This document shows, piece after piece, positions 46,758 through 46,874 of a stretch of 64,000 nt of DNA (the first letter of the stretch is position 1; every line of letters starts with the position of its first letter). Under the pieces are notes generated by a model. That model saw nothing but the letters and a program-made list of their open reading frames with translations. It made no database searches and was not told the origin of the DNA. The translations under genes and the position numbers were made by a program. The DNA comes from a virus (taxonomy: Duplodnaviria; Heunggongvirae; Uroviricota; Caudoviricetes): IMG/VR virus record IMGVR_UViG_3300008262_000022. The stretch is one strand, 5' to 3'.

Positions 46758-46874
46758 GGGGGAGAATGCAAAACAAAACACTGTTCAAGCATTCTCTCGA
46801 AAGAGTAGTAATAGAATAGTTACTTCGCAATCAAACTGTAAATTTGACGACTTGCCGTAAGGCCTCCCCCACCA
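46758..46874 (+). ncRNA. tRNA-Tyr(GTA)-like chimera carrying a permuted Y-like module in the D arm
   Basis: GGGGGAG/CTCCCCC-ACCA acceptor; tcaaa-ctGTAaa-tttga arm; module TAGTAA...TTACTTCG in the D loop; T arm reduced to gcc-gtaa-ggc. Confidence 0.65.

Follow-up and report, generated by a model that had tools for sequence, protein, structure and literature searches.

A conserved family of predicted phage RNAs combines tRNA-Tyr-like ends with a capped handle module at the D-arm position

Y RNAs are partners of the Ro60 protein that mimic the top half of tRNA, which raises the question of what this mimicry serves. We analyzed a window of 64,000 nt (the whole stretch of DNA considered here; IMG/VR record IMGVR_UViG_3300008262_000022), which is part of the complete genome of an uncultured phage (171.7 kb, with direct terminal repeats), and asked what is encoded by a 117-nt element on its plus strand (46758-46874). 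About 28 tRNA genes lie on the plus strand of the window between 45559 and 53380, and the element occupies the gap between a tRNA-Pro and a tRNA-Gly gene, from which it is separated by 4 nt and 1 nt, respectively. ARAGORN made no call over 46758-46874, and no Rfam family, RF00005 included, matched there even at E ≤ 10. Comparison with relatives indicates that the element belongs to a genuine, conserved family of phage small RNAs and is not a product of chance. The reading that we favor, with moderate confidence, is an RNase P-processed mimic of tRNA-Tyr in which the D arm is replaced by a capped handle, and which would dock on the phage's Ro60 protein as a Y RNA-type tether or decoy.

The element begins with GGGGGAG (46758-46764), preceded by a U at position -1 (46757), and this strand pairs with CUCCCCC (46864-46870) to form a 7-bp acceptor stem; the 3′ segment (46864-46874) continues with the discriminator A (46871) and an encoded CCA, giving ACCA at 46871-46874. 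Between the acceptor strands lies an anticodon arm, UCAAA-CUGUAAA-UUUGA (46831-46847), with a 5-bp stem, a 7-nt loop, U33, a purine at position 37 (A37) and the anticodon GUA (46838-46840). An initial annotation, made from the sequence alone, had listed the 7-bp acceptor with ACCA and the canonical GUA anticodon arm, and all of these parts are present in the element. Its tRNA-Tyr identity features are A73, G1-C72, G34-U35 and the GUA anticodon. The identity set of bacterial tRNA-Tyr consists of A73, G34/U35 and a long variable arm; in the element, no such long arm follows the anticodon stem, and a 6-nt variable linker (CGACUU) leads directly to the mini-hairpin GCC-GUAA-GGC (together 46848-46863, with the hairpin at 46854-46863 adjoining the acceptor 3′ strand). 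Neither a D arm nor a T arm with a GTTCRANNC loop is present; the mini-hairpin takes the place of the T arm, and a capped 41-nt handle branch takes that of the D arm.

The handle branch follows an A-rich 15-nt linker (AAUGCAAAACAAAAC, 46765-46779). It consists of the 3′-strand half of helix 2 (ACUGUUC, 46780-46786, paired with 46814-46820), the 3′ side of an internal loop (AAGCAUU, 46787-46793), helix 1 with a GNRA cap (CU-CUC GAAA GAG-U-AG, 46794-46808, in which the U at 46806 is bulged), and finally the 5′ side of the internal loop (UAAUA) with the 5′-strand half of helix 2 (GAAUAGU; together 46809-46820). The next 10 nt (46821-46830) are UACUUCG, which is invariant in the alignment, and CAA; we presume that they are the Ro60-contact strand, and their position is comparable to that of the GNCGAA motif of YrlA. 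Taken as a module spanning 46775-46827, the arrangement is a 3′ strand (AAAACACTGTTCAAGCATTCTCTC), GAAA, and then a 5′ strand (GAGTAGTAATAGAATAGTTACTTCG).

The same module recurs in six ordinary handle RNAs of the window, which start at 47478, 51191, 51301, 51432, 51587 and 51846 (spans 47478-47631 and 51191-51975). In these copies, a 5′ strand (nnG-U-AG-YAA, a helix-2 half and UUACUUCG) and a 3′ strand (..AAC-AC, a helix-2 half, AUUUU and CU-Cnn) surround a cargo, which in the last copy is tRNA-His, and helix 1, with the pattern nnG-U(bulge)-AG / CU-Cnn, is formed by the RNA ends. All handle-defining parts are present in the element, namely the strands GUAGYAA..GUUACUUCG and ..CAC..UUCUC, the bulged-U helix 1 and a covarying helix 2; the 3′ strand of its module is identical at 17 of 24 positions to copy A of the ordinary RNAs. 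Helix 2 covaries among the window copies, as GAAUAGU/ACUGUUC in the element and as GUGAAAGU/ACUUUUAC, GUAAGU/ACUUAC, AUCGU/ACGAU and GUGGGU/ACUCAC in others. The order of the strands, however, is reversed in the element, and the order 3′ strand, GAAA, 5′ strand makes helix 1 (CU-CUC / GAG-U-AG) a capped hairpin and turns the open end of the module toward the tRNA body. The element resembles the ordinary handle RNAs of the same phage in its bulged-U two-helix module, conserved strands and tRNA-like cargo theme; whereas in the ordinary RNAs the module closes the RNA ends around a cargo that is often a permuted tRNA, in the element the module is internal and capped, and the ends are of tRNA type. 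The proposal that a circularly permuted module replaces the D loop is therefore borne out, with the same module as in the six ordinary copies. One structural detail implied by the initial annotation was not supported: the local hairpin AGTAA...TTACT (GUAGUAA/UUACUUC), which also appears in the minimum free energy (MFE) fold, does not covary. Variants of it such as GUAGCAA and AUAGUGA arise without compensation, and the long-range helix 2 (GAATAGT/ACTGTTC) covaries instead.

To obtain relatives of the element, we scanned IMG/VR for exact patterns and added a single metagenome scan and a single genome scan; the relatives thus come from pattern-selected loci (numbered with the prefix L below). 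When 10 members were aligned with MAFFT, the 5′ ends and the anticodon arms were placed incorrectly; instead, we used a covariance model derived from just the window sequence, followed by a structure-guided alignment. Besides the window element, the model gave 21 full-length matches at E ≤ 2e-4, yielding 20 distinct sequences with that of the window counted. All matches are in uncultured-phage contigs, with E values from 1e-21 to 5e-5, and the closest relatives are L131 (100.6 bits, E = 1e-21) and L190 (85.3 bits, E = 5e-18). Looser pattern scans returned mostly chance matches in coding DNA, which we reused as negative controls; across ~1.3 Mb of such control loci, there was no model match at E ≤ 0.01 except for three true members. 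Like the window element, the relatives received no call from tRNA detectors. Megablast of 46500-47250 against GenBank phages identified short tRNA matches only and no close relative, and a scan of 185,579 prokaryote genomes identified a single match, on a 1.5-kb contig of a metagenome-assembled genome (L198); with one match in that many genomes, the family looks phage-specific.

On the structure-guided alignment, 93.2% of paired cells (a somewhat inflated figure, for a reason given below) were compatible with pairing, versus 71.2% after shuffling and 44-53% with slid partners, and changes on both sides occurred in 24 of 27 pairs among the 20 members. The acceptor was 99.3% paired, with double changes in 6 of its 7 pairs; the corresponding values were 99% and 5 of 5 pairs for the cap helix, and 87.9% and 6 of 7 pairs for helix 2. 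Compensation in the cap is visible in the raw sequences, as CUC/GAG, CCG/CGG, UCA/UGA, CAU/AUG, CUU/AAG, CUG/CAG and UGG/CCA.

The consensus fold of the element has a free energy of -28.6 kcal/mol; the unconstrained MFE fold reaches -32.9 kcal/mol (z = -3.99 versus shuffles) with partly different helices, and the RNA may adopt alternative conformers according to these predictions. The helix of the MFE fold, here called helix X, pairs the first 5 nt of the linker (46765-46769) with 46789-46793 in the handle internal loop, and it can be extended to 46762-46769 / 46789-46796. Complementarity of this type occurs in 10 of the 20 members, in which the last acceptor bases and the linker are perfectly complementary to 6-10 nt of the strand formed by the handle internal loop and helix 1. 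The strands covary, as GAGAAUGC/GCAUUCUC in the window, GAGAAAGU/ACUUUCUC in L075, GAGAAUACA/UGUAUUCUC in L017 and GAAGAAAUUC/GAAUUUCUUC in L091, and the longest helix X run was 6.05 as observed versus a mean of 4.65 on linker-only shuffling. Helix X would form either a pseudoknot with helix 2 or an alternative conformer. The linker itself is nearly the same in the window element, L131 and L190: its initial 12 nt (AAUGCAAAACAA) do not vary among them, and all differences fall in the final 3 nt.

All 20 members lie within same-strand tRNA arrays, mostly 0-13 nt from their neighbors. In the window, these neighbors are tRNA-Pro(UGG) (46680-46753, plus strand, 4 nt upstream) and tRNA-Gly(GCC) (46876-46948, plus strand, 1 nt downstream), both called by ARAGORN. 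A U at -1 is found in 18 of 20 members and a GNRA cap in 16 of 20. An anticodon arm of canonical form, in which 4 bp or more close a 7-nt loop that has U33 and a purine at position 37, is present in 11 of 20 members; 300 shuffling trials gave a mean of 1.1 such members and never more than 5. The commonest anticodon is GUA (the window, L190, L177/L093, L183 and L089, as well as L131 and L027 with one flaw each), and UGA, CAU, GUG, UGG and UUC also occur. In L190, L177, L183 and L089, the loop CUGUAAA remains constant over compensated changes in the stem (UCAAU/AUUGA, AUCA/UGAU and AGAU/AUCU).

The 3′ part of the family varies in a way that bears on the encoded CCA. At the place of the mini-hairpin in the window element, 17 of the 20 distinct members have a true GGUUCRAAUCC T arm, in agreement with the initial annotation, which had described the T arm as shrunk to a GNRA hairpin. 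Only the window element, L131 (GGC-CUAAAAA-GCC at this position) and L190 (a GGCC hairpin) are without a T arm; all three carry GUA, and all three end in ACCA. NCCA is encoded in 11 of the 20 members, and CCA is encoded in only 2 of 25 tRNA genes of the window array (45559-53298); the other 23 are without it, many of them ending in N-C followed by AAA. The T arm is part of what the host CCA-adding enzyme recognizes, and a hard-coded CCA in the members lacking a T arm would fit the need created by its loss. The complete 171.7-kb phage genome contains no gene for a CCA-adding enzyme, RtcB, TyrRS or a class-Ib synthetase.

Most members share the acceptor GGGGRAG/CUYCCCC, usually with A73, regardless of their anticodon. 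In carrier phages, the acceptor stems of normal tRNA-Tyr genes (82-89 nt) are unrelated to that of the chimera, and we therefore reject descent from a co-resident tRNA-Tyr. Because the acceptor is shared across anticodons and is unlike that of the resident tRNA-Tyr, the family probably stems from one graft in which the anticodon varied later, and we consider this single origin most likely, over repeated origins, given the sequences compared. As a separate observation, the sole other tRNA-Tyr of the window (45905-45976) is atypical: it is 72 nt long, scores 36.7 bits and is without the long variable arm of bacterial-type tRNA-Tyr, whereas normal tRNA-Tyr genes of related phages are 82-89 nt long. 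Its acceptor stem (GGGGUAG/CUGCCCC-A) is similar to that of the chimera family.

The presumed partner of the element, a phage Ro60 gene with TROVE and vWA domains (49526-51151, plus strand), lies 2.65 kb downstream. The best PDB match of its open reading frame (ORF) was the Ro60 of Thermus phage phiLo (PDB 9KOP/9L5Y), with E = 1.1e-11 over residues 22-510, nearly the full length; the ORF also had weak Pfam matches to TROVE and vWA_Ro60. The initial annotation had proposed an aminoacylatable or decoy tRNA tethered to Ro60, and the two genes indeed co-occur: a Ro60 homologue was identified in 15 of 20 carrier records, among them all three that are at least 90% complete, whereas the 9 control records, 62-184 kb in length, had none (Fisher p = 2e-4). 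In each of the seven loci that hold both genes, the chimera and Ro60 share a strand and are separated by 1.2-10.4 kb, and the Ro60 proteins of carrier records share 36-72% identity with that of the window. Ordinary handles occur in another 29 records; Ro60 was identified in 13 of these, and none of the three with a completeness of 90% or more lacks it. TBLASTN of Ro60 against GenBank phages identified as the best match an uncultured 635-kb phage with 34% identity; its 41-kb Ro60 neighborhood contained no chimera, and no cultured carrier was found in this search.

A second connection leads through YrlA. Ordinary handle RNAs whose cargo includes T and D arms (L131 and L018) gave full-length, sub-threshold matches of 39 bits to the Rfam YrlA model, which aligns its GNCGAA motif to UUCGAA of the ordinary handle RNA. 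Chen et al. connected this motif with Rsr binding (PMC4201824). YrlA RNAs are sought on the same strand within ~4 kb of Ro60 (PMC4201824), and the distance from the end of the element (46874) to the start of Ro60 (49526) falls within that range. The element itself had no match to the YrlA covariance model (RF02553; gathering score, 69 bits) at E ≤ 10, and it has neither the GNCGAAN0-1G motif near the 5′ end nor the T and D stem-loops of YrlA; its UUCGCAA is internal.

Handles were found at three kinds of site: open at RNA termini, capped at the D-arm site in the chimera family, and capped at the anticodon-arm site in L125 and L088. These positions agree with the initial claim that the module is an autonomous unit, and together they show a handle that appears to be a portable RNA building block, grafted by phages at three sites of tRNA scaffolds. 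In L125 (622-772, plus strand), as also near position 1476 of L088, an otherwise complete tRNA with an 8-bp acceptor, a D arm and a T arm has its anticodon arm swapped for a capped handle (CUAA-GAAA-UUAG-U-AG...), and this graft is a circular permutation of the YrlA layout. On the minus strand of L124, three D-arm chimeras occur within 2 kb (2698-2846, 4263-4394 and 4513-4637), with loops GUG, CAU and UUC, and a Ro60 gene lies 1.2 kb downstream.

In the mechanism that we propose for the tRNA-Tyr mimic, the element would be transcribed within the tRNA array. RNase P would cut at U(-1)/G1, and an RNase P cut at the next tRNA with 3′ trimming would leave the genome-encoded ACCA end. The handle, with its two helices (a bulged U in helix 1) and the invariant UUACUUCG strand, would dock on the ring of phage Ro60, and the acceptor-CCA end and CUGUAAA loop would stay exposed as a look-alike of tRNA-Tyr. 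Ro60 could in this way be coupled to some reader of tRNA-Tyr, for example a synthetase, a nuclease or an enzyme acting on the anticodon loop, with the element serving as a Y RNA-type tether or decoy. We infer each of these steps, from transcription and processing to the binding of Ro60 and the nature of the partner that reads the tRNA features.

Several observations weigh against this mechanism. The MFE fold is not the same as the consensus fold, and the pair counts are somewhat inflated because the alignment was fitted to the model structure. Some relatives have 6-, 8- or 10-nt loops at the anticodon position, such that the anticodon face is not universal. Five of the 20 carrier records are without Ro60, all five of them fragments that are 3-15% complete; as evidence, co-occurrences among phages that are related to each other are not wholly independent, and every carrier is an uncultured phage. 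The noncanonical loops of several relatives, along with the GGGGRAG acceptor that most members have regardless of anticodon, would also suit a Y-type RNA that uses tRNA features only for maturation and stability, with the acceptor and CCA recruiting RNase P and protecting the 3′ end and the anticodon arm being a leftover without a partner. YrlA offers a precedent, as Chen et al. proposed that its tRNA fold and CCA protect it from exonucleases (PMC4201824). We nevertheless regard this as unlikely, if the most serious of the alternatives, in that CUGUAAA is identical in five members despite compensated stem changes and 7-nt loops with U33 and R37 occur in 11 of 20 members versus 1.1 expected, a pattern that points to selection on the loop itself. 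Less likely again is a handle that is not a Ro60 site at all, being instead a self-folding structural or processing module, or the site of another protein, that shares lineages with Ro60 by descent only. The helix-1 sequence is unlike the vertebrate GGUCCGA helix, the chimera matches no Rfam family, and several large partial handle-bearing records are without Ro60, all of which would be expected from such a module; however, the association persists over deep divergence (carrier Ro60 proteins are 36-72% identical to that of the window), Ro60 is present in all complete carrier genomes, the ordinary handle copies at 51191-51975 cluster within 1 kb of the window Ro60 gene, and the ordinary handle RNAs have a YrlA-like architecture.

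The remaining alternatives concern charging, translation and chance. A73 and G1-C72 of the GUA members are compatible with TyrRS, and it is conceivable, although a long shot, that the element is a chargeable Y RNA: host TyrRS would tyrosylate the Ro60-bound RNA via A73 and the GUA loop, and Ro60, with a recruited nuclease, would be delivered via EF-Tu or the ribosomal A site to tyrosine codons, or charging would gate Ro60 by the state of the tRNA-Tyr pool, for example after a tRNA-Tyr-cleaving defense. Against charging as a general property, the GUG, UGG, CAU and UUC members mostly keep the GGGGRAG acceptor and not the features of their own synthetase; the GUG members have A73 and no G-1, and cognate charging is therefore unlikely for them. 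We find it very improbable that the element functions in translation as a tRNA-Tyr, albeit a bizarre one, accepting tyrosine and decoding UAY codons on the ribosome. Such a role would account for G1-C72, A73, G34-U35-A36 and the encoded CCA, the armless mitochondrial tRNAs demonstrate that missing arms can be tolerated, and the only other tRNA-Tyr of the window is the atypical 72-nt gene. Yet the absence of both the D and T arms leaves EF-Tu and the ribosome without an elbow, a 41-nt branch has been added, tRNA detectors reject the sequence, and L131 and L190 have a normal tRNA-Tyr of 82-84 nt besides the chimera. We give least credence of all, and hardly any, to a decaying tRNA gene broken by insertion or to chance resemblance; the lack of an ARAGORN or Rfam call would be in keeping with either, but compensatory changes in every helix among 20 relatives contradict both, the cap, CCA end and anticodon loop are conserved, and ~1.3 Mb gave no false model matches.

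Other features of the array deserve mention. The 97-nt spacer between tRNA-Asp and tRNA-Pro (46583-46679) folds well, at -34.5 kcal/mol (z = -3.6); it is closed by 9 bp and includes a hairpin similar to a T arm (CGGGUUCGAAGCCCG), and it is a candidate for a further unannotated tRNA-like RNA. Sub-threshold, full-model matches to archaeal-type RNase P RNA, each ~180 nt and within a tRNA array, were identified at 52370-52552 of the window (35.6 bits) and at 8613-8790 of L091 (minus strand; 31.8 bits); these may represent a reduced phage RNase P RNA. A 34-nt repeat of the TTGGCTTGGCAAAATAAAAATATTATCTTTACAA type occurs at 45500-45533, 47717-47750, 49449-49482 and 51154-51187 of the window, one copy before each block of the tRNA/Ro60 island. 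It overlaps a sigma-70-like match (TTGGCA-18-TACAAT), and the repeats are likely a promoter family. L018 is a complete phage genome of 100 kb, and its tRNA array is adjoined by a full-length match to tmRNA that stays below threshold (2791-3216, plus strand; 34.5 bits, E = 3e-10).

With respect to the question of why Y RNAs mimic tRNA, the family keeps the two information-bearing ends of a tRNA, a free CCA acceptor and a real anticodon loop, most often that of tyrosine. It makes aminoacylation of a Y RNA, as well as coupling of Ro60 to a synthetase, an anticodon-loop enzyme or a tRNA-Tyr-targeting defense nuclease, experimentally approachable. It also adds to phage tRNA arrays a gene class overlooked by current tRNA and Rfam annotation pipelines.

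Some known RNAs share parts of this design. The stable RNA species 1 and 2 of phage T4 (rnaC and rnaD) are non-tRNA small RNAs among tRNA genes, with which they are co-processed, and they have tRNA-like paired ends; they resemble the element as small non-tRNA RNAs within a phage tRNA cluster, and to our knowledge T4 has no Ro60 gene or handle. Likewise, tmRNA is a chargeable mimic with an acceptor-CCA end and missing cloverleaf parts, and so are tRNA-like structures of viruses, for example the 3′ end of brome mosaic virus RNA, which accepts tyrosine; unlike the element, they have no canonical anticodon loop and no link to Ro60. Among phages, TROVE proteins were briefly mentioned in jumbo phages (PMC7824862), and Thermus phage phiLo is like the window in having a Ro60 homologue (phiRo60) with Y-like RNAs (Yrl1 and Yrl2) adjoining its gene (PMC12135203). 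However, the phiLo RNAs were recognized upstream of the gene through their stem-loops and a CGAA motif, and no tRNA-array setting, anticodon or CCA end was reported for them (PMC12135203). The bacterial and mycobacteriophage Y RNAs YrlA and YrlB (RF02553; PMC4201824) share with the element a same-strand position near Ro60 and the combination of a Ro60-associated element with a tRNA-like domain, and M. smegmatis YrlA is cleaved by RNase P and gains CCA (PMC4201824). The crystal structure of YrlA is the subject of a preprint. In the literature searched, coverage of which is incomplete, we found no description of a tRNA body that has an anticodon and a free CCA end and carries a grafted element of Ro60 type. 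Whereas YrlA keeps the D and T arms, closes its acceptor-like stem with a loop, has no anticodon arm and places the RNA ends in the Ro60-binding stem, the element ends in a free acceptor stem with an encoded CCA, keeps the anticodon arm, has lost the D and T arms and carries its Ro60-associated part as an internal capped branch; judged by these sequence features, the family is probably a new Y RNA architecture.
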